DNA of 43,311 nt from Candidatus Sumerlaeaceae bacterium (lineage in GTDB: Bacteria > Sumerlaeota > Sumerlaeia > Sumerlaeales > Sumerlaeaceae), in assembly GCA_026419455.1 (NCBI GenBank), contig JANZZJ010000261.1, forward strand, positions 1 through 43,311, in the 5' to 3' direction. Shown here one piece after another: positions 1,102 through 17,923 of the stretch. A program made the position numbers and the translations under genes. The notes beneath the pieces are model-generated. The model saw only the letters and a list, made by a program, of their open reading frames with translations. It had not been told where the DNA came from and searched no databases. Position 1 is the stretch's first letter. Each line of letters opens with the position of its first letter.

Positions 1102-1188
1102 CCAATTTAAATTTTGGCGGCGTGCAATAAACGGAAGACGGCCGGTGTATAATCGCACAAAACTACGTTCTTTGACTTCACGTTAAAG

Positions 1189-1455
1189 GCGTTGAAGAGG
1201 AGTAGTAGGAACAAGCTCGGCCTTGAGAGAGCCGCTGGATGGTGCGAAGCGGTGGCGAGCCTTCCGAACTCGCCTTGGAGCCGCGATGGTGAATAACCGG
1301 CAAATGAGCCGGGGGTAGCTGTCGCCGCGAGCTCGGCGTAAAAGGAGCAAAGGAAGGCGTTTCGGCGGTTTTTCAACCCCCGACGCGAAGCTGGGTGGTA
1401 CCACGAATAAAAGGTTCGTCCCCGCGACTGAGTTCAGTCGCGGGGCTTTCTGTTT
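1189..1455 (+). promoter_or_regulatory. T-box riboswitch leader, leucine-specific (specifier CUC), transcription-attenuation type
   Basis: Stem I hallmarks: AGTA at 1201, AG box GAGAGAGC at 1225-1232, GGTG at 1241, specifier loop GAA-CTC (CTC at 1269-1271). T-box AAGCTGGGTGGTACCACG at 1388-1405, followed by a terminator. It lies upstream of leuA, and a TATAAT is present at 1148-1153. Confidence 0.9.
1420..1455 (+). terminator. T-box attenuator terminator
   Basis: Inverted repeat CCCCGCGACTGA (1420-1431) / TCAGTCGCGGGG (1434-1445), then CTTTCTGTTT. Confidence 0.85.
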
Positions 1456-6590: not shown

Positions 6591-7304
6591 TCACAAGCGG
6601 TCTGAACGAAGTATCTGAGCCAAATCGCCAGTCTTCACCCCCAAAGCGTTGGCATCGTCGGTATCGAGGTGGAGCTCCGCGCGAAACGTTTCCGCCACTC
6701 GAACTTGGACGTCGAAGAGAATCGCAGGTCTTTCGCCTTCGATTCGCACTGCTACTACGTCCCTATCCCGTAATCCTAGCACACTGGCTTGGCTTGGGTG
6801 CATGTGAATATGGCGGTTAGCTCGTATCACTCCAGCGGCAATGGTTATGGAACCAGCAGGACCTACAAGCGTTATTCCAGATGTGTCGCGGTGGTCACCG
6901 CTAGGACGAATAGGTGGGAGTCTCTTAAGGCCAAGGCCGTAACAATCTGTAAGCGAGAGCTCGACTTGAGTGGTAGAACGCAGGGGCCCTAACACGCGAA
7001 TCGGCCCCAGACAACGGCCTACTGGCGAAACAATCGTGACCTGCTGCTCACTGGCATACTCCCCTACTTGCTTGAGAGGGCGCAATACAGTGAGTTGCGA
7101 ATCTGCTCCAAAGAGAATGGCATGGTGTTCCCGACTCAAATGCACATGCCGCGCGGAAACGCCAATGGGTACCCGCCCGGCTTTAATGTCCTCGCTAATA
7201 AGCCCATTATCCGATTGAGGCATTAGCGACGATGCATTCCCACGGCTACTAGCGAGACGCTCGAGGACGCGCGCCACTATTGTATCCACCACACGTTCAT
7301 CCAT
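6591..7304 (-). CDS. pduL: PduL-type phosphate acyltransferase with an N-terminal extension
   Basis: PIGVSARHVHLS, RVLGPLR..QVELSLTD, RHIHM and LHLDTDDANA motifs. Confidence 0.9.
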   Translation of the reverse strand: MDERVVDTIVARVLERLASSRGNASSLMPQSDNGLISEDIKAGRVPIGVSARHVHLSREHHAILFGADSQLTVLRPLKQVGEYASEQQVTIVSPVGRCLGPIRVLGPLRSTTQVELSLTDCYGLGLKRLPPIRPSGDHRDTSGITLVGPAGSITIAAGVIRANRHIHMHPSQASVLGLRDRDVVAVRIEGERPAILFDVQVRVAETFRAELHLDTDDANALGVKTGDLAQILRSDRL

Positions 7305-7336: not shown

Positions 7337-9757
7337 TCACTCAAGATCGAAATGAGGATGTTCGGCTGTTTGGCTGACTGTTTGAGCTTCGATAAGGTGA
7401 CCATCGGTCTGGATAAGAATAGCGCCATGCTGGTCGGTGCGATAAACTCTCGCCCCGTGTGCGTTCAGACGCTCGACGACCACCTGCGAAGGATGACCGT
7501 AACGATTCTTACGTCCGCAGGAGATCACTGCAATTTGCGGTGACAGCACATTCAGAAAGTCGTCCGATGTGCTTGAGGCACTGCCATGGTGGGCAACCTT
7601 AAGAACGTCACATTTGGGAACGCCGTCCCGCAACAGAGCGCTTTCGGCTTTTCTCTCTGCATCCCCTGTCATGAGGATAGAGAAGTCTTTATAAGTGACT
7701 GTGAGGACAAGTGAGTCGTCGTTTTCCGATGCTACTGTCGCTGTCGTCGAGCAGTCTGGGTTGAGAACCCTGACATCTAGGCCTGGACTAACAAGCGTCC
7801 TGTGGCCAGCACACACACGAACGACGCGCGGCAATTTGTCTGCTTGTGCGCCCTGGGGCAAAAGTCGATCCAGCTCAGCGACATTGTTTCCGATGACGAG
7901 GGTTCCGACCTGCCATTCTTCCAGCACTGCCTGCACACCACCCGAATGATCGCTGTCAAGATGAGTGACAACGAGATAGTCGAGAGGGTAGCAACCGAGA
8001 GCCTGGAGGTGAGGAACGACCACCAAACGTCCGACATCGGGCAGGGAGTTGCCCGCATCCACAAGGATATTTTGGCCAGTCGGGAGCTGAAGAAGAGCTG
8101 AATCCCCCTGGCCGACATCGAGAAACCATATCTTTAGGCGCCGGTCAGCCCTTTGCCAGGCCATAGCCACGAGAAGAACGAGAAGAGCCCCAAGACAATG
8201 GAGAGTTAGCCGTGCCCGTGCCTTGGGGACAAATTCAGGGGAATCGCGTCGTACAAAATAATATCCTGACAAAAGAATGACATAGTAGCCGCCGACAGCA
8301 ACGAGAGGACAGTGGCCAGTCCGTGCTATTGCCCAACTTTGGTGGGCGGTCATTTCAATAACTCCCATAAGAGCCCGCGCTAACATGGCTGTGGAAGCGC
8401 CAATGATGTTGGCCAGTGGGGCGGAGACGAGTGACGCTCCCACAGTAAGAAGCGAACTCACGATCACAGGACCTGCCAGAATTGCCCCGAGCACGTTCGC
8501 AAGTGGGGACAACATGTTGACCTGATGGAAATAATAAAGCTGGAGCGGGAAGATCAGTAAGGACACAGCGATTGTAACCCGGACGGTGTCGGTCAAAAGC
8601 TGCCAACATGAATTTAGCCATGTTGGAAAGTGGGATAACTGACCGACCGGCAGAATTTGTTTCAAGAGGGGGTAAAAAGATACAATACCAAGAACTCCTA
8701 CGGCTGAGAGGATAAATCCAGTCTGGTAAATGAGGGTTGGCTGCGCCAACAAAAGCGCCAAGCATGCCAGGCCGAGAGCACCTATGGGATCAATTTCTCT
8801 GCGAAACCATGTACTGGCGCCGTACGCAGTGAGCATCGTTCCGGCGCGCAACGCCGACGGCACAAATCCCGTCATAGCGACGTACGCCCACATAATGATC
8901 ACAGTAACGCCCCACGAAAGAGGCCACGACAGGCGTAGCGCTCGAACGGCCATCAACACGAAGGCAGCGAGCGCGCCTACGTGAAGGCCGCTAACGGCAA
9001 ACAGGTGAAACATGTTGCTATCGCGCAGCCAGCGGATTTCATCACGAATGAGGAGCCGCCGGTCGTTAAACAGTAAACTACCTACCCACCGGCTTTCTTT
9101 CCCCGACAACGTTTCAGACAGAGCGTTTAAAGCGTAGCGACGAACATCCCCTAGCCCCTCGTCAATAGTGCCAACGATGCCGCGGGGACTCAAGGCAGTC
9201 CATGAGCTGGTTCGAAGCACTGCGTAAATTCGCTGACGCGCTAGTCGTTCTCCGTAATCCAATACGAAAAAATTCCTATAGCTTTGAGGTTCATCCAAAA
9301 TTCCGCGGACTTCGATCCTCTGCCCCACTGTGGGGCATTGTGTCGTCAATTCTTCTCCGCGCGCGGTCAATGTGACAAGTACACCACCCTCCAGCGAAAC
9401 CGTGCCCAGGGCAGTCCTAATCACAGCCTGCCGCAGAACAAACCGCCTGCCAGTATCGCTCGTTGGCTCGATAAATGACACCGTGCCTTCGACTGTTGCT
9501 GACGTTGGGGGAGCAAGCGAGCGCAGAGAGTTTGTCGCCTGATGTGCTTCTCGAACCAAATTCCGGCTTACAGCACCACCTAAAAGGAAGACTACCCCCA
9601 TTATTGCGGGTGTGATGTCGCGGCGCAACACACCCCCTACGCAAGCAACGGCCCCAGCTCCCACGAGCAGATAAATCAGGGGTACATAGCGCCCAATTGC
9701 TAACCCAAACCCGTAGAGACATAAGAGAGGAATGATTGGGCGCTTGAAATAGGTCAT
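7337..9757 (-). CDS. comEC: DNA internalization competence protein ComEC/Rec2
   Basis: Multi-TM protein with an OB-like region, HLFAVSGLHV competence motif and C-terminal metallo-beta-lactamase domain (DVGQGD, THLDSDH, KVAHHGS, NRYGHP). Confidence 0.93.
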   Translation of the reverse strand: MTYFKRPIIPLLCLYGFGLAIGRYVPLIYLLVGAGAVACVGGVLRRDITPAIMGVVFLLGGAVSRNLVREAHQATNSLRSLAPPTSATVEGTVSFIEPTSDTGRRFVLRQAVIRTALGTVSLEGGVLVTLTARGEELTTQCPTVGQRIEVRGILDEPQSYRNFFVLDYGERLARQRIYAVLRTSSWTALSPRGIVGTIDEGLGDVRRYALNALSETLSGKESRWVGSLLFNDRRLLIRDEIRWLRDSNMFHLFAVSGLHVGALAAFVLMAVRALRLSWPLSWGVTVIIMWAYVAMTGFVPSALRAGTMLTAYGASTWFRREIDPIGALGLACLALLLAQPTLIYQTGFILSAVGVLGIVSFYPLLKQILPVGQLSHFPTWLNSCWQLLTDTVRVTIAVSLLIFPLQLYYFHQVNMLSPLANVLGAILAGPVIVSSLLTVGASLVSAPLANIIGASTAMLARALMGVIEMTAHQSWAIARTGHCPLVAVGGYYVILLSGYYFVRRDSPEFVPKARARLTLHCLGALLVLLVAMAWQRADRRLKIWFLDVGQGDSALLQLPTGQNILVDAGNSLPDVGRLVVVPHLQALGCYPLDYLVVTHLDSDHSGGVQAVLEEWQVGTLVIGNNVAELDRLLPQGAQADKLPRVVRVCAGHRTLVSPGLDVRVLNPDCSTTATVASENDDSLVLTVTYKDFSILMTGDAERKAESALLRDGVPKCDVLKVAHHGSASSTSDDFLNVLSPQIAVISCGRKNRYGHPSQVVVERLNAHGARVYRTDQHGAILIQTDGHLIEAQTVSQTAEHPHFDLE

Positions 9758-12956: not shown

Positions 12957-14341
12957 GTAAGAGGACCGTCATTATTATAATTCTCGTGGCAGGAGTTGTT
13001 GCTGCGTATTGGAAATGGGGACGTGCCGCGAAATCCCCGGTACAGGAGGCTGAGCAGGCAACCCGCACGGTCAAGGTTGAACGTGGGACGATAGAACTGA
13101 AAGTCTCAACGACGGGTCGTGTGATTTCCAACCGTGACGTTGACATCAAGTCCAAGGCGAGCGGTCAAATCGTCCGATTTCCCTTTGACATCAGCGACCA
13201 GGTAACAAGTGGCGCCCTGCTAGCTGAGCTCGATCCAGTTGACGAAATTCGCAACGTAACTCAGCGCGAGGCAGCGCTCGCATCGGCAAGGGCGCGTCTC
13301 GAACAGGCAAAGCAGGAGTATCAGGTGGCGCTCGTCAATCTGGAGACACAGACGTCGAGCGCTTTGGCCGAACTTGCAGCAGCCACCATTCGCGAGCGAG
13401 ACGCCCGAGCACGATTAGCCCGCGAGGAAGAACTTTATCAGAAGGGGCTCACGACAAAAGAATCGCTTGATGCTGCACGCAGCGAGGCGGCAAGCGCTGC
13501 GAATCAACTTCGGCAGGCCGAGGTCAAGGTGGCGCAAACCAGGAATTTACCGCGCACGGTTGAAATGAGGCGGCAGGATGTTGTGTTGGCGGAATCCGAC
13601 GTCAGGCGCGCTGAAGTGGATCTTCAAAATGCCCAACAGCGCTTACGCGAGACTAAGATCTTTGCCCCCATGGACGGCGTAGTGACTGCGAAGATGGTCC
13701 AGGAGGGGCAAATCATTTCATCAGGAATCTCAAATGTGGGGGGAGGAACAACGCTTCTCACACTTAGCGATCTCTCACGAATTTTCGTTAGCGCGAGTGT
13801 GGATGAATCCGACATAGGCAAAGTGAAACTGGGTCAACGTGCGATCATAACGTGTGATGCTTATCCGGGACGCCGCTTCCGCGGAAAGGTAGTCCGGATT
13901 GCCACAAAGGGGACAAACAACAACAATGTTGTGACTTTTGAAGTGAAAATCGAGGTGGAGGGTGAGGGCAAAGAGCTGCTGCGTCCGGAGATGACGGCAA
14001 ACGTCGAAATCCAAGCCGACCGGAAGGAAGATGTCTTGCTCCTTCCAAATGAAGCTGTTCAGTTTGGACGGATGGGCTATTATGTTGAAACAAAGAAGGC
14101 CGATGATCCCACCACCACCGTGCGCAAACCCGTAAAAACGGGCATCACCGACGGGCTAATGACCGAGATCGCCGAAGGCGTCCAAGAGGGTGAAGAAGTT
14201 CTGGTGCCAAGCACCGTGCAAAGTCGCTGGGTACAGGGACAAGCTGGTGGCCCTGGCCAGCGTGGTGCGAACTTCGATCGCGGCATGCGGATGGCCACAT
14301 TCCGGCTGAGCGGGGCAGGTGGGGGCGGAGGGAGACGCTGA
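12953..14341 (+). CDS. Periplasmic adaptor (MacA-like membrane fusion protein)
   Basis: N-terminal anchor, DIKSKASGQI lipoyl half, long coiled coil, IFAPMDGVV, VDESDIGKVKLGQ and LRPEMTA motifs. Confidence 0.92.
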   Translation: MSKRTVIIIILVAGVVAAYWKWGRAAKSPVQEAEQATRTVKVERGTIELKVSTTGRVISNRDVDIKSKASGQIVRFPFDISDQVTSGALLAELDPVDEIRNVTQREAALASARARLEQAKQEYQVALVNLETQTSSALAELAAATIRERDARARLAREEELYQKGLTTKESLDAARSEAASAANQLRQAEVKVAQTRNLPRTVEMRRQDVVLAESDVRRAEVDLQNAQQRLRETKIFAPMDGVVTAKMVQEGQIISSGISNVGGGTTLLTLSDLSRIFVSASVDESDIGKVKLGQRAIITCDAYPGRRFRGKVVRIATKGTNNNNVVTFEVKIEVEGEGKELLRPEMTANVEIQADRKEDVLLLPNEAVQFGRMGYYVETKKADDPTTTVRKPVKTGITDGLMTEIAEGVQEGEEVLVPSTVQSRWVQGQAGGPGQRGANFDRGMRMATFRLSGAGGGGGRR

Positions 14342-14342
14342 C

Positions 14343-15068
14343 GTGAGCCGCTGCATCGAACTACGTGACATTGTGAAAATCTATCGCATGGGCGATCAGG
14401 ATGTACGCGCTGTTGACGGCGTGAGCTTCTCCGTGGAAAGCGGTGAAATGGTGGCCATCACGGGCGCTTCTGGAAGTGGGAAGACGACGCTGATGAATAT
14501 TATAGGCTGCCTCGATCGTCCGACGTCGGGTCAATACTTTCTCGATGGGGAAGACGTCAGCCGTCTGAGCGAGAATGCTTTGGCACGCATTCGCAACCGA
14601 AAGATCGGTTTCGTTTTTCAGAATTTTAATCTTCTTCCGCGTATGACGGCACTCGAAAATGTTGAGGTGCCGCTGCTCTATGCCGGGTTCCATCACGCTA
14701 AAGAACAGGCGATGGCAGCGCTTGAAAGGGTTGGACTCGCCTCGCGTGCAAATCACGAACCCAACCAACTGTCGGGTGGACAACGACAGCGCGTGGCCAT
14801 TGCGCGCGCCCTGGTGACAAACCCCACAATTATCCTAGCAGACGAACCAACGGGTAACCTCGACAGTAGGACAAGTGTGGAAATCATGGAACTGTTTAGT
14901 GAACTGAATACTCAGGGTGTGACACTGATTATTGTGACGCACGAGCACGATATAGCCTCGTGGTGTCGTCGCATTATTCAAATGCGCGACGGCAAAATTC
15001 TTGATGACCGCCCAGTGGAGCCGAAACGGATCGTTCACAGCACGCTGACGGCACCTAATTCAAAATAA
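14343..15068 (+). CDS. ABC transporter ATP-binding protein (MacB/LolD type)
   Basis: [23 protein letters not shown] and [11 protein letters not shown] motifs. GTG start at 14343, just after the upstream stop. Confidence 0.94.
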
Positions 15069-15138: not shown

Positions 15139-16221
15139 GTGCCGACAATCAGCAACAAACAGAAGACCTTAGGCGGCAAACGAGAACGGGAAAATGCGGT
15201 TACGCGCCTGTTGACCGTTGTGTGTGCGCTGGCAAGCAAGAAAGGCGGGCTCACCTATGCGGAGATCCAAGATTACCTTGCGAGAGCCAATCATAAAGTT
15301 AGTCGCCGAACCATCGAACGCGACATTGATACACTGATGCGCTTTTGGGAGATTGAACGTGTTCGAAAAGGAACGACGGTGCGATGGAAGCTTCTGGGGC
15401 CGATTGAAAGTGAGCTTCCTTTTCCGCTCGAGACCCTGGAACTCTTCGCGCTAACCATCGCATATCAGGCGCTTGCGGTAAGTGATTTGCGGTGGCTAGC
15501 TCCGTACCTAAAGAATCTCGTTGCACGCCTGCGGCCAGAATTTTCGCGTTCGTATCAGAAATTTTTCGATTTTTTGGAAAATAAGTTTACCAATGCCACA
15601 ATAGCCACCCCCAATCCGCCCGGATGTTGCGGCCGTTACGACTCCCTTATGGAAGCCATCATACAGCGCCGCCGGGTGATTATAAGTTATCGTGACAGCA
15701 AAGACCAGTTAACAAAGAATCGTGAGATAGCGCCGCTTCTTATTGTTCATGAGCGTGGAGGAACATACCTAGCAGCGCACTGCTTTCGAAGAAATGGACA
15801 TCGACTATTTCGTCTCTCGCGCATCCAAAATCTCGAGGTAACGGACAAAACATTCGACGATGGGCTGCTTGAGGGACTTAAAGAAAAACTTGGGACATCG
15901 CTCGGCGCGTTCCATGCTGAACCCGAGAAAGTAGTCGTCGAAGTTGATAAATTGTTAGCTCGGTATCTTGAGGAAAATCCCATCCATCGCAGCCAGACTT
16001 TGAAAAAAGAGAAGGGTCGTTATTACGTGCACCTTTTCGTCGGTCTTAATGAAACCCTTTTCCACCAATTGATGGGATTTGGTCCCCACGCACGCGTCAT
16101 CGAACCTCAGAAACTGGCCAGCCTGCTTCTCGAGCGACATCGAGAAGCACTGGAGTACCAAACTGGCGTCATTACGGAAAACAGGATCCAGCCTGATTTG
16201 CCACTAAGTTACAAGGACTGA
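15139..16221 (+). CDS. HTH-WYL-WCX transcriptional regulator (DriD/PafC/YafY-like)
   Basis: N-terminal wHTH (VSRRTIERDIDTL), WYL domain (ISYRDS...REIAPL...TYLAAHC...RLFRLSRI) and WCX region (HRSQ...LMGFGPHARVIEPQKL). Confidence 0.92.
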   Translation: MPTISNKQKTLGGKRERENAVTRLLTVVCALASKKGGLTYAEIQDYLARANHKVSRRTIERDIDTLMRFWEIERVRKGTTVRWKLLGPIESELPFPLETLELFALTIAYQALAVSDLRWLAPYLKNLVARLRPEFSRSYQKFFDFLENKFTNATIATPNPPGCCGRYDSLMEAIIQRRRVIISYRDSKDQLTKNREIAPLLIVHERGGTYLAAHCFRRNGHRLFRLSRIQNLEVTDKTFDDGLLEGLKEKLGTSLGAFHAEPEKVVVEVDKLLARYLEENPIHRSQTLKKEKGRYYVHLFVGLNETLFHQLMGFGPHARVIEPQKLASLLLERHREALEYQTGVITENRIQPDLPLSYKD

Positions 16222-16253
16222 TTTACGGGAAGCTTGGGTTTCATAAATCAGTC
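16216..16253 (+). terminator. Hairpin overlapping the WYL stop codon (possible terminator or insulator)
   Basis: GACTGATTTA (16216-16225) is perfectly complementary to TAAATCAGTC (16244-16253). There is no clear U-tract. Confidence 0.45.
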
Positions 16254-16265
16254 ATCGCAAAACAA

Positions 16266-16286
16266 GTATGACCTAAACTGTCGGAT
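16266..16286 (+). promoter_or_regulatory. 21-bp box, copy 1 (GTATGACCTAAACTGTCGGAT); candidate WYL operator
   Basis: Exact duplicate at 16512-16532, with a GAC-N7-GTC pseudo-palindromic core. It starts 45 bp after the WYL stop codon. The operator role is inferred. Confidence 0.65.
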
Positions 16287-16317
16287 GCCCGGCAACCCAT
16301 AATGGTACATTATCGCG

Positions 16318-16456
16318 TAAGACATCTGCGGCTAGTACGCTTTATGGCAAGTTCTAGCCAGGAGAAAACAAGTCCCGAGAAGGAGACGGGGAGAGGAAAA
16401 CGGGGCAGGGGGGAAAAGAGAGGCGCCGACTGGGGGGACGGCGCCTCTCGCGTTTT
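16318..16456 (+). ncRNA. Candidate small RNA 1 (~140 nt)
   Basis: Lies downstream of the box and TACATT (16306-16311). 5' hairpin GGCTAG...CTAGCC (16330-16359), purine-rich linker, 11-bp stem 16418-16428/16439-16449, then GCGTTTT. Transcription is inferred, not shown. Confidence 0.5.
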
Positions 16457-16511
16457 CACGGCAGTGGGTCCGAGTTGCAATACACGATTCTTACGGAACT
16501 ACGAAAACGAT

Positions 16512-16532
16512 GTATGACCTAAACTGTCGGAT
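16512..16532 (+). promoter_or_regulatory. 21-bp box, copy 2; candidate WYL operator
   Basis: Identical to 16266-16286 while most flanking sequence has diverged. Confidence 0.65.
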
Positions 16533-16557
16533 ACTCGGGATGAAGCAACAGTATAGC

Positions 16558-16700
16558 TAAGACAAACGCGTGCAGTTTTGGCTTCACCGACAAGCCACAT
16601 CCTGCCAAATAAGAGTCAGGGGCGAGTTGGGAACAGTAAAGACGGGGAGGAGAAAACGAGAGGCGCCGGCTGGGGAGGAGGACGGCGCCTCTCTCTTTTT
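16558..16700 (+). ncRNA. Candidate small RNA 2 (~140 nt), paralog of candidate 1
   Basis: Lies downstream of the box and TATAGC (16552-16557). 5' hairpin TGGCTT...AAGCCA, purine-rich linker, identical 11-bp stem 16658-16668/16683-16693, then TCTTTTT. Confidence 0.5.
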
Positions 16701-16798
16701 GCACAGGACGAAAAGCACAGCTGTGCGGTGTAGGCTTAGAGAGCAATTTAACCAAATTTTTCTTTACCGCCATCGCCACAGCCCCCAGAACAGCCAGC

Positions 16799-17923
16799 AT
16801 GCGAGTGGCACTAGTCCATGATTGGCTCAACGGGATGCGGGGGGGAGAAAAGGTTTTTGAAGTGCTTTGCGAACTTTATCCCCAAGCTGACGTGTTCACC
16901 CTGTTTTTCGAACCCAGGCGCGTGTCGCCGATCATCCGAGCGATGAAAGTTCACGAATGGTGGGCTGCCCGTCGCATTCCCTTTGCACGTCGCTACTACA
17001 GATGGTTTCTACCATTTTTTCCGAGGGCAGTCGAACATTTTTCTATTACGGGATATGATCTCGTCATTTCGACGTCACATTGTGTTGCTAAAGGGATTTG
17101 TCCCCGCCCTGAGAGCACAGTCCATATCTGTTATTGTTTCACCCCCATGCGCTATTTGTGGGATAAATTCGACGACTACTTTGGAAACCCGTGGCACTTC
17201 AGCTCATGGGTTATGCGAGCGTTGCGCGAACCGCTAAGGCGCTGGGATGTAGAAACGGCGTCCCGGGTGACGCATTTTCTTGCGCCGTCGGAATACGTGC
17301 GGGAGCGAATACGGCGGCATTATATGCGTGATGCTGTTGTCATTCCGCCCCCTGTGGACTGGGGAAGGTACTCGGTGGTCGAAAGGGTTCCTGCGGATTT
17401 CTTCTTGGTCGTTTCAGCCCTTGAACCGTATAAGCGTGTGGATATTGCCATCGAAGCCTGCAATCGGCTCAAAGTACCTCTGAAAATTGTCGGCACCGGC
17501 ACGCAAGAGAAGCGCCTTCGGCGACTTGCGGGGCCCACGATCGAATTCCTCGGTTGGGTTTCTGACACTCAGTTGGCAGCATTGTATTCGTGTGCGCGAG
17601 CACTGCTATTTCCATCGGATGAGGATTTCGGTATTGTGCCCGTGGAGGCCATGGCGTCGGGTTGTCCGGTGATTGCATTCCGCAAAGGTGGAGCCTTAGA
17701 GACTGTTGTTGAGGGGCACACGGGGATTTTTTTCGACGAGCAGACACCTGACTCGCTCATAGTTGCCATGCAACAAATGGAAACTTTCCAGTTTGATGAA
17801 GAGTTCGGGAGACGTCATGCACAGCGATTTGCGCGCGAAACGTTCATGGCCCGACTGCGCGAAGCGATAGAGAAACTGGCAGGACTATCGTCGGGATCTT
17901 TTCGGGCTGTGAAAAACGACTGA
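16799..17923 (+). CDS. Glycosyltransferase family 4 (GT-B)
   Basis: MRVALVHDWL..RGGEKV and EDFGIVPVEAMASGCPVIA motifs. Confidence 0.92.
   Translation: MRVALVHDWLNGMRGGEKVFEVLCELYPQADVFTLFFEPRRVSPIIRAMKVHEWWAARRIPFARRYYRWFLPFFPRAVEHFSITGYDLVISTSHCVAKGICPRPESTVHICYCFTPMRYLWDKFDDYFGNPWHFSSWVMRALREPLRRWDVETASRVTHFLAPSEYVRERIRRHYMRDAVVIPPPVDWGRYSVVERVPADFFLVVSALEPYKRVDIAIEACNRLKVPLKIVGTGTQEKRLRRLAGPTIEFLGWVSDTQLAALYSCARALLFPSDEDFGIVPVEAMASGCPVIAFRKGGALETVVEGHTGIFFDEQTPDSLIVAMQQMETFQFDEEFGRRHAQRFARETFMARLREAIEKLAGLSSGSFRAVKND

Follow-up and report, generated by a model that had tools for sequence, protein, structure and literature searches.

A DriD-like WYL regulator and two tandem candidate small-RNA genes in a Sumerlaeaceae bacterium

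There is growing evidence that transcription regulators with a WYL domain, among them DriD, PafBC, DdaA, CapW and BrxR, form a widespread class of single-stranded DNA (ssDNA) sensors, through which responses to DNA damage and phages are controlled. We rely here on the available portions of five reports on these proteins (PMC6789036, PMC13004042, PMC10853764, PMC10693628, PMC12392091). In those portions, all described WYL outputs are protein genes and no small RNA (sRNA) is described as a direct WYL target, although the supplementary tables for DriD, DdaA and PafBC could list RNA targets. Full-text literature searches aimed at an sRNA under WYL control likewise brought up no paper that reports one. 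According to the same partial texts, the operator of DriD is the pseudo-palindrome ATACGAC(X)7GTCGTAT (PMC13004042, PMC10853764), which overlaps the position of a missing -35 element and lies at a fixed distance from the -10 element (PMC13004042). In the current study we describe a locus of Candidatus Sumerlaeaceae bacterium (assembly GCA_026419455.1) on contig JANZZJ010000261.1, of which positions 1 to 43,311 of the forward strand were analysed (hereafter the window). There, a gene for a DriD-like WYL regulator is followed by two tandem elements that are quite likely to be WYL-controlled sRNA genes.

The features on which this proposal depends are the following, all on the + strand of the window.

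15139–16221, + strand: gene for a DriD-like regulator of 360 amino acids, with the order winged helix-turn-helix (wHTH), three-helix bundle (3HB), WYL, WCX; assigned by its WYL and WCX domains and a full-length DriD alignment
16266–16286, + strand: candidate operator box 1, 21 bp, pseudo-palindrome TATGAC-N7-GTCGGA; exact repeat with likeness to the DriD 21-mer
16306–16311, + strand: -10-like hexamer TACATT of unit 1, read from the sequence, with no -35-like hexamer at the usual distance
16318–16457, + strand: candidate sRNA unit 1, about 140 nt, with a 5' hairpin, a purine-rich tract, a candidate seed and a terminator; assigned by its fold and the lack of an open reading frame (ORF)
16402–16414, + strand: G-rich motif GGGGCAGGGGGGA of unit 1, candidate seed; conserved, and a 13-nt complement to the loop of a hairpin in the moxR leader (see below)
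16418–16456, + strand: predicted terminator 1, with an 11-bp GC-rich stem, a 10-nt loop and TTTT; assigned by inverted repeat and fold
16512–16532, + strand: candidate operator box 2, identical to box 1; exact repeat
16552–16557, + strand: -10-like hexamer TATAGC of unit 2, read from the sequence
16558–16701, + strand: candidate sRNA unit 2, about 144 nt; assigned by its fold and the lack of an ORF
16644–16652, + strand: GGGGAGGAG in the purine tract of unit 2, complementary by eye to the 5' half of the moxR-leader loop
16658–16700, + strand: predicted terminator 2, with the same 11-bp stem, a 14-nt loop and TTTTT; an inverted repeat whose inner part is found by the terminator scan
16672–16681, + strand: GGGGAGGAGG, within the terminator 2 loop; complementary to the moxR-leader loop over 10 nt, the longest perfect match of unit 2 to the G000 hairpin

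Both units lie in the 577-bp gap (16222–16798) between the WYL gene and a gene for a GT4 glycosyltransferase, and they are built from the same blocks in the same order. Exactly two copies of the box GTATGACCTAAACTGTCGGAT are present in the window, starting at 16266 and 16512, and none of 100 shuffles matches it at three or fewer mismatches. Each copy is followed, 40 nt after the box start, by a -10-like hexamer in a region where GTAYA is conserved between the two units, then by TAAGACA (16318 and 16558), by AGACGGGGAG (16384 and 16640) and by identical 11-bp stems formed by GAGAGGCGCCG and CGGCGCCTCTC (16418–16428 with 16439–16449, and 16658–16668 with 16683–16693), with a run of T residues after each. 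The units are 76% identical over MAFFT columns, with the matching columns clustered in box, start region, purine tract and terminator; box and terminator are identical and the middle has diverged. Neither unit holds an ORF of at least 12 amino acids on the + strand. The predicted RNA of unit 1 folds with -51.1 kcal/mol (z -3.0). When the gap was scanned with a terminator consensus, only part of terminator 2 was recovered, and terminator 1 has just four T residues.

An earlier note on this DNA, made from its letters alone, had described the same arrangement: an HTH-WYL gene, two identical 21-bp boxes with -10-like hexamers exactly 40 nt on, the same ordered blocks ending in an identical 11-bp stem and T tract, and diverged sequence between the blocks with no conserved protein. 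All of these hold at the positions given above. The note had also suggested a search of Rfam, which yields no match at gathering score in 16150–16850 and none in the corresponding loci of relatives; the best matches by E-value lie on the minus strand and fall far below threshold. The candidate RNA would represent a new family, which so far is confined to one subclade of the Sumerlaeaceae. Two other assignments were considered and set aside: a DidA-like small protein was rejected for lack of a conserved ORF, and a sigma-54 promoter was dropped by eye when unit 2 was seen to lack the GG/GC pair.

The WYL gene itself matches the Pfam models for WYL (PF13280, 1.5e-17, 63.8 bits) and WCX (PF25583, 1.7e-12, 47.9 bits), both above cut-off, and Pfam calls no HTH domain in it. 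When the protein is compared by phmmer with solved structures, its closest relatives are the DriD entries 8tp8/8tpk and 9pfq, and residues 13–337 align to Caulobacter DriD over 18–340 (8tp8) and 4–324 (9pfq) at an E-value of about 2e-12. The N-terminal wHTH and three-helix bundle are colinear with those of DriD in this alignment, and a stretch FRLSR stands opposite WRLDR of DriD. PafBC and other WYL structures match only the C-terminal part (PafBC 6sj9, WYL-WCX part, 1.3e-09). As judged from its sequence, and as part of the overall explanation that we favour, the product is probably a DriD-like homodimeric WYL transcription activator.

The box points in the same direction. Written as TATGAC-CTAAACT-GTCGGA, it follows the GAC-N7-GTC format of the DriD operator, in which the spacer is A/T-rich, and 14 of its 21 positions, including GAC, ACTGTCG and the A/T-rich spacer, are the same by eye as in the 21-mer of the DriD crystal structure. 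In the available part of the report on the DriD promoter (PMC13004042), the printed oligonucleotide reads as 12 nt from GTC to the -10 hexamer. All relatives with a box have a -10 hexamer (TAnnnN) that also begins 12 nt after GTC. A consensus scan calls no sigma-70 promoter in the 577-bp gap, and a -35-like hexamer accompanies neither -10. This lack of a consensus promoter fits an activator-dependent promoter without a -35 element, yet is no evidence for one. Just before box 1, an A/T-rich inverted repeat (window 16209–16260, 17 nt, 82% complementary) spans the stop codon of the WYL gene.

To place the locus among relatives we used 61 genomes, comprising the 13 of the family Sumerlaeaceae, including the source genome (G000; 2.63 Mb in 272 contigs, 80% complete), and 48 from other families of the class. 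Widening the view from family to order adds no genome to these 13, and the nearest genomes belong to Candidatus Sumerlaeota, family Sumerlaeaceae. The family relatives are labelled G001 to G012, fetched loci carry L numbers and contigs C numbers. WYL homologues (E <= 1e-20) are encoded in ten of the 61 genomes, namely G000 and nine of the 12 other family members, and in none of the 48 genomes of other families. A TGAC-N7-GTC(A/G) box is present in the fetched WYL-gene flanks of nine of the ten family genomes that have the gene, and GTGAC-N7-GTCAC adjoins WYL genes of relatives.

The complete order of WYL gene, box, G/A-rich terminated RNA and GT4 glycosyltransferase gene is found in four of the 13 family genomes: G000, G001 and G002 (same genus) and G006 (another genus), with completeness of 80–96%. 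In the three relatives the RNA stretch is G/A-rich and ORF-poor, ends in a strong terminator and occupies the same syntenic place; the ORFs in the G001 and G002 units are not conserved. A scan of metagenome contigs with a GT4 alignment returned 80 loci. Three of these (L065, L066, L068) have an upstream WYL homologue, and each of their gaps contains a box with a -10 as well as a G-rich RNA with its terminator; GT4 orthologues follow the candidate sRNA in these as in G001, G002 and G006. The equivalent scan with a WYL alignment returned nothing. L065 and L068 are near-identical here and are counted as one, so that the seven units come from six genomes or contigs. The stem sequence of the terminator is different in each genome, yet every unit forms a hairpin with a T run after it. 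Purine tracts resembling GGAGAGGAAA recur across units, and GGGCAGGGGG(G) stands directly 5' of the terminator in six of the seven, the exception being unit 2.

The earlier note had proposed looking downstream of orthologous WYL genes, and a box with a terminated RNA is indeed what synteny and pattern searches find there in G001, G002 and G006. Its two tandem cassettes call for a narrower statement: the unit is conserved at the same place in relatives, and the tandem pair is peculiar to G000, with one unit per relative. Because relatives have a single unit, the pair is a lineage-specific local duplication. The note had also reasoned that a cassette scattered through the genome independently of WYL genes would speak against WYL control. 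BLASTN with the gap finds only the gap itself in the 13 family genomes, and the 80%-complete G000 holds four boxes and no further copy of the unit. A search with the pattern GGCAGGGG-N25-55-TTTTT gave counts like those of a reversed control; it recovered the G001, G002 and G006 units, and none of three further candidates that were inspected (G003:C19, G007:C74, G003:C8) has a box. That the adjacent targets of the WYL protein are two paralogous non-coding RNAs, as the note had suggested, is supported by linkage, operator type and synteny.

This pattern of conservation also bears on the possibility that the units are decaying remnants, that is, duplicated promoter and terminator debris without function. 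The diverged middle parts and the lack of GGGCAGGGGG beside the terminator of unit 2 would be expected of such debris. We nevertheless regard decay as very improbable, given that box, TAAGACA start region, purine tract and terminator are selectively kept between the paralogues, and that genera with WYL proteins of only 33–40% identity have retained both the architecture and the seed.

The genes that flank the locus are listed here for context.

14319–15068, + strand: ABC-transporter ATPase gene, 5' neighbour of the WYL gene (Pfam ABC_tran, 8.7e-38)
16799–17923, + strand: GT4 glycosyltransferase gene, conserved 3' neighbour (Pfam Glycos_transf_1)

In G001, G002 and G006 the ORF directly 5' of the WYL gene is also co-directional and encodes 241, 241 and 233 amino acids, respectively (these were not run against Pfam). 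The 3' neighbour is of greater consequence, since the units might instead be cis-acting leaders or attenuators of a GT4 operon, in which transcription would start at the box promoter and regulated read-through of the terminator would control polysaccharide genes. In keeping with such a role, the unit is co-directional with and 5' of the GT4 gene in all six genomes or contigs, at a distance of about 100 nt in G000, G001 and G006. However, the stems are strong (11–17 bp, GC-rich) with no alternative antiterminator seen in the folds, the spacing from terminator to GT4 gene is about 520 bp in G002, and GT4 orthologues in G003, G004, G005 and G007 have no upstream WYL gene or unit. Likewise, there is no conserved ligand-binding core of the kind that a riboswitch would have, and the bodies do not align between genomes. 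Finally, even G007, a genome without the unit, retains the motif TTTTYCTTTACC some 45 nt ahead of the GT4 start, and this suggests that the GT4 gene has its own promoter. On balance, we consider a leader function unlikely. The motif itself (window about 16750–16762; L006, L009, L059, L061) is kept in G000, G001, G002, G006 and G007 and may be a GT4 promoter element.

Returning to a WYL-controlled sRNA locus, further boxes hint at what else the regulator might control. At three or fewer mismatches G000 has four boxes, the two in the window and two elsewhere, of which the third lies between pyrH-frr and a cse1 gene and the fourth between a gene for a Hel308-like helicase and a GNAT gene. Boxes are also found upstream of pyrH in G001 and G002 and upstream of cas3 in G006. 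In G004, G007, G010, G011 and G012 (L008, L010, L012, L013, L014) the box promoter faces an adjacent protein gene with a Shine–Dalgarno sequence; the encoded proteins have 256–313 amino acids, those of G011 and G012 giving a weak match to the Cas3 C-terminal domain and the other three matching no family. This mix of nucleic-acid metabolism and repair genes with CRISPR and defence genes near predicted boxes resembles the DdaA regulon. A box-like site in C45 lies within coding sequence and was taken as chance. The cse1 ORF on C236 (L004 1599–2402) has only 267 amino acids and matches the first half of Cse1 models, and a second ORF follows directly (L004 2412–3020), such that the gene may be split or frameshifted, or the assembly may be in error.

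How the RNAs might act is suggested in part by which RNA-binding proteins are encoded. Hfq is found in all four sRNA-bearing genomes. CsrA (PF02599) is found in none of them, and three control genomes were positive. The absence of CsrA together with the presence of Hfq speaks against a CsrB-like sponge and is compatible with a base-pairing RNA of the Hfq type; a CsrA sponge of the CsrB/RsmZ type was rejected on this ground. Features of Hfq-type sRNAs are present, namely the hfq gene, a terminator in every unit and the candidate seed GGGCAGGGGG(G) in six of seven units, and the sRNAs may thus depend on Hfq. An alternative is that the RNAs bind protein and do not base-pair, either by acting on the neighbouring regulator, whose Sm-like WYL domain they could occupy as decoy or feedback ligand, or as a sponge for another RNA-binding protein with affinity for the repeated GCAGGGG and GGAG motifs. 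Each RNA of G001 and G002 indeed has two copies of the G-rich motif, one of them in a hairpin loop, there is close linkage between the genes for the RNA and the WYL protein, and WYL domains are described in the accessible part of one report as having an Sm-like fold and binding single-stranded nucleic acid (PMC6789036). Against this, the classic partner of GGA-rich sponges is the missing CsrA, and the known effector of DriD, PafBC and CapW, as far as the texts at hand describe it, is ssDNA. A protein ligand is in our estimation improbable.

If the RNAs instead pair with messages, as the sRNA interpretation holds, a candidate partner can be named. The complement of the conserved motif, CCCCCTGCC, has 22 sites in G000, which were compared with 23 sites in G001 and with the 30 of 41 sites in G006 that were fetched. 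Only one of the 22 is kept at the orthologous place in both relatives, and it lies on another contig than the window, in the leader of an operon that begins with moxR.

G000 C165:4660–4725 (L228:1661–1726; also L230, L231 and L233–L240): moxR-leader hairpin with a C-rich apical loop

The conserved site forms the apical loop of 21 nt, UCCCUCCUCCCCCCUGCCCCC, on a hairpin in which about 21 positions are paired (-40 kcal/mol, z -5.6), situated between a gene for an HtrA-like protease and the moxR (AAA_3)-DUF58/VWA operon. The distance from hairpin to moxR start is 72–83 nt at the conserved site and 40–160 nt across the family, in which the hairpin is upstream of moxR in 11 of 12 genomes with a moxR orthologue and is lacking in G007. 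Stem sequences vary from genome to genome, and the tops of the hairpins are C-rich. An RNAalifold run on a MAFFT alignment of 11 hairpins returned only eight pairs, with the 3' arms misaligned, and single folds were used instead. The hairpin has no match in Rfam, including CcsR. As judged from sequence and fold, it is an undescribed candidate RNA element found across the family Sumerlaeaceae.

The version of the loop with CCCCCCUGCCCC, and the UG in the loop that matches the CA of the seed, are confined to the four sRNA-bearing genomes, in which the match between sRNA and hairpin reaches 10–13 nt, compared with 5–10 nt for the hairpins of other family genomes. By complementarity, unit 1 would pair with the 3' half of the loop (13 nt) and unit 2 with the 5' half (9–10 nt). 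Shuffled sequences reach the unit 1 value of at least 13 nt with P of 0.0006–0.0024 and the unit 2 value of 10 nt in 1–2.6% of cases. Perfect complements of the loop of at least 12 nt occur at three places in G000: the antisense strand of the hairpin, unit 1 (16402–16414, 13 nt) and C116:9171. We put the moxR-leader loop forward as a possible sRNA target, and tentatively so.

Several elements seen in the course of this search deserve mention in their own right. The C116 site lies in an intergenic purine-rich stretch (C116 about 9100–9280) with GGCAGGGGGGAGG, the sole other 13-nt complement of the loop in G000, and no box or clear terminator was seen there. G003 has G runs with an internal U and terminator-like hairpins at L241 (G003:C1, about 251250) and L262 (G003:C19, about 5680), which by eye complement this genome's own loop variant CCCCCCCACCCCCCCC by 12 and 11 nt; with 18 matches against 16 in a control, these candidates cannot be told from chance and are no more than a lead. 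The loop variant of G003 and G005 would call for a seed that has U where the others have CA. A second sRNA-like element at G000 C66 (about 6730–6875) consists of a small hairpin, a single strand with CCAUAACCUCCUAACCUC and a terminator. G000 and G005 share about 97% identity over 32 nt of this element, which in G003 and G005 is located upstream of the GT4 orthologue (L063, L064) and there has no Rfam match. Pairing of the G/A-rich sRNAs with this C/U-rich RNA was rejected, since the duplex energies are no better than those of random windows (fractions 0.62 and 0.89).

Several observations weigh against the interpretation of the locus as DriD-type sRNA genes with a moxR-leader target. The moxR-leader loop was chosen as a partner post hoc, both partners are of low complexity (a G run and a C run), and genome counts of the 9-mer and the 10-mer equal those of reversed-pattern controls. 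The four genomes with the seed–loop match are kin, and the G006 part of the site comparison was incomplete. Unit 2 folds with -50.3 kcal/mol and a z of -2.0, just two standard deviations better than shuffles. MAFFT fails to align the terminators of the units between genomes or their bodies, and the latter precludes a covariation statistic for the 5' hairpins. The examples are drawn entirely from a single small family with 13 genomes and from three contigs, two of them near-identical, so that related genomes are not independent witnesses. No box lies within about 1.5 kb of the G003 WYL homologue. The invariable position of the units upstream of and co-directional with a GT4 gene leaves room for a cis role. 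Lastly, the -10-like hexamers of both G000 units lie 23 nt after GTC, not 12 nt, a spacing that is one helical turn longer than in DriD promoters and in all relatives, and by eye neither spacing reveals a -10 at the remaining two G000 boxes.

For the offset in G000, the only explanation we can offer is that the activator may have shifted to the same face of the helix. The G000 box centre falls near -42 relative to the proposed -10 (by eye), which is not the DriD position, and this would also suit a repressor. The box might then be the site of a repressor or of another factor, and the RNAs might be constitutive and shut off by the WYL protein, as in CapW/BrxR operons; WYL repressors do exist, as one partly available report describes (PMC11662680). 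This is again improbable in our judgement, given that neither -10 has a -35-like hexamer and no consensus promoter was called in the gap, that the relatives show the geometry of DriD-activated promoters, and that the closest solved relative is the activator DriD. Even with the reservations listed above, we consider it reasonably probable that the locus comprises a DriD-like activator and two tandem paralogous sRNA genes of about 140 nt, each with its own operator and terminator, which would operate along the lines set out next.

In the mechanism that we infer, in which transcription of the units, protein binding, activation, inducing signal and target are all predictions, the WYL domain would, by analogy with DriD, bind ssDNA that arises from DNA damage or phage attack. 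Binding of ssDNA would free the wHTH domains to bind the boxes and recruit RNA polymerase, such that both sRNAs would be induced from genes that each carry a DriD-type 21-bp operator, a -10 without a usable -35 and an intrinsic terminator of their own. The sRNAs might then act in trans, possibly with the Hfq that these genomes encode, and their best candidate partner would be the 21-nt C-rich apical loop in the leader of moxR(AAA+)-DUF58/VWA. It is conceivable, although we hold this more detailed picture with little confidence, that an ssDNA-sensing WYL activator has thus acquired an RNA arm whose G-rich seeds occupy the moxR-leader loop, and that the duplicated copies have divided the loop between them, with unit 1 taking the 3' part and unit 2 the 5' part.

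If true, DNA damage or phage attack would be coupled to a MoxR chaperone system. More generally, an sRNA output would add a post-transcriptional arm to the WYL response, and for Sumerlaeota, an uncultured phylum, the units would be the first candidates for regulatory RNAs. The predicted pair of seed and loop is a testable statement on what the response controls. Given that regulator, operator and RNA lie within 1.7 kb, a heterologous reporter is feasible. Elsewhere in the window, a T-box leader at 1183–1426 (+ strand, 103.6 bits, above gathering score) is the sole Rfam match, and elsewhere in the genome the first 45 or so bases of C240 read like what we take to be a sequencing-adapter remnant.

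Among described systems, the mycobacterial proteins PafBC and SiwR are, in the portions of the literature available here, WYL activators that replace recognition of the -35 element in what is called 'sigma adaptation', and their targets are protein genes. SiwR acts on the operon next to it by way of an imperfect palindrome that lies between -35 and -10. PafBC is described as a heterodimer with a non-palindromic motif (PMC6789036), unlike the regulator proposed here, and the same partly accessible text states that no mycobacterial sRNA has been implicated in the damage response (PMC6789036). DdaA of Moraxellaceae, a DriD-related activator of DNA-damage and anti-phage genes, has an operator motif that according to the available excerpt is a palindrome of the CGAC-N7-GTCG type, like the box (PMC12392091). 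Its regulon there includes repair genes and CRISPR-Cas promoters (PMC12392091), comparable with the boxes before cse1 and cas3 and near the gene for a Hel308-like helicase in the genomes studied here. The excerpt mentions no sRNA target (PMC12392091), and the likeness is one of motif and regulon.

The closest counterpart is DriD of Caulobacter crescentus, an activator of an SOS-independent DNA-damage response. It shares the wHTH–3HB–WYL–WCX order over its full length and the 21-bp GAC-N7-GTC pseudo-palindrome with an A/T-rich spacer (14 of 21 positions), and one of its targets adjoins the regulator gene, as here. In the Sumerlaeaceae relatives, too, the distance between predicted operator and -10 is constant and the operator covers the -35 position; in G000 it lies one helical turn further away. 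The similarity between the proteins is just at the level of an E-value of about 1e-12, and the phylum here is a different one, Sumerlaeota. Furthermore, the targets named for DriD in the accessible text are the protein genes didA, recA, recJ, bapE and dnaG, whereas the adjacent targets here are predicted to be non-coding RNAs.

On the RNA side, the candidate partner hairpin, with CCUCCUCCCC in its apical loop, recalls the CcsR or 'cuckoo' RNAs, which have CCUCCUCCC loops (RF02791, RF02344). Matches of CcsR1 and ar14 to the antisense strand of unit 2 score 14 and 18.9 bits, far below the gathering values of 65.3 and 58.8, and amount to resemblance only. In the overall logic of regulation, parallels are stress regulators with an sRNA output of their own, such as OxyR with OxyS and Fur with RyhB, in which a transcription factor that senses the stress switches on a short RNA with a terminator at its end, and this RNA regulates mRNAs, in many cases together with Hfq; most sRNA seeds target Shine–Dalgarno regions with C/U-rich sequence. 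The proposed system would share this logic, and Hfq is present here as well, and it would differ in having a WYL protein as its sensor, a G-rich RNA as its effector and two tandem copies of the RNA gene.

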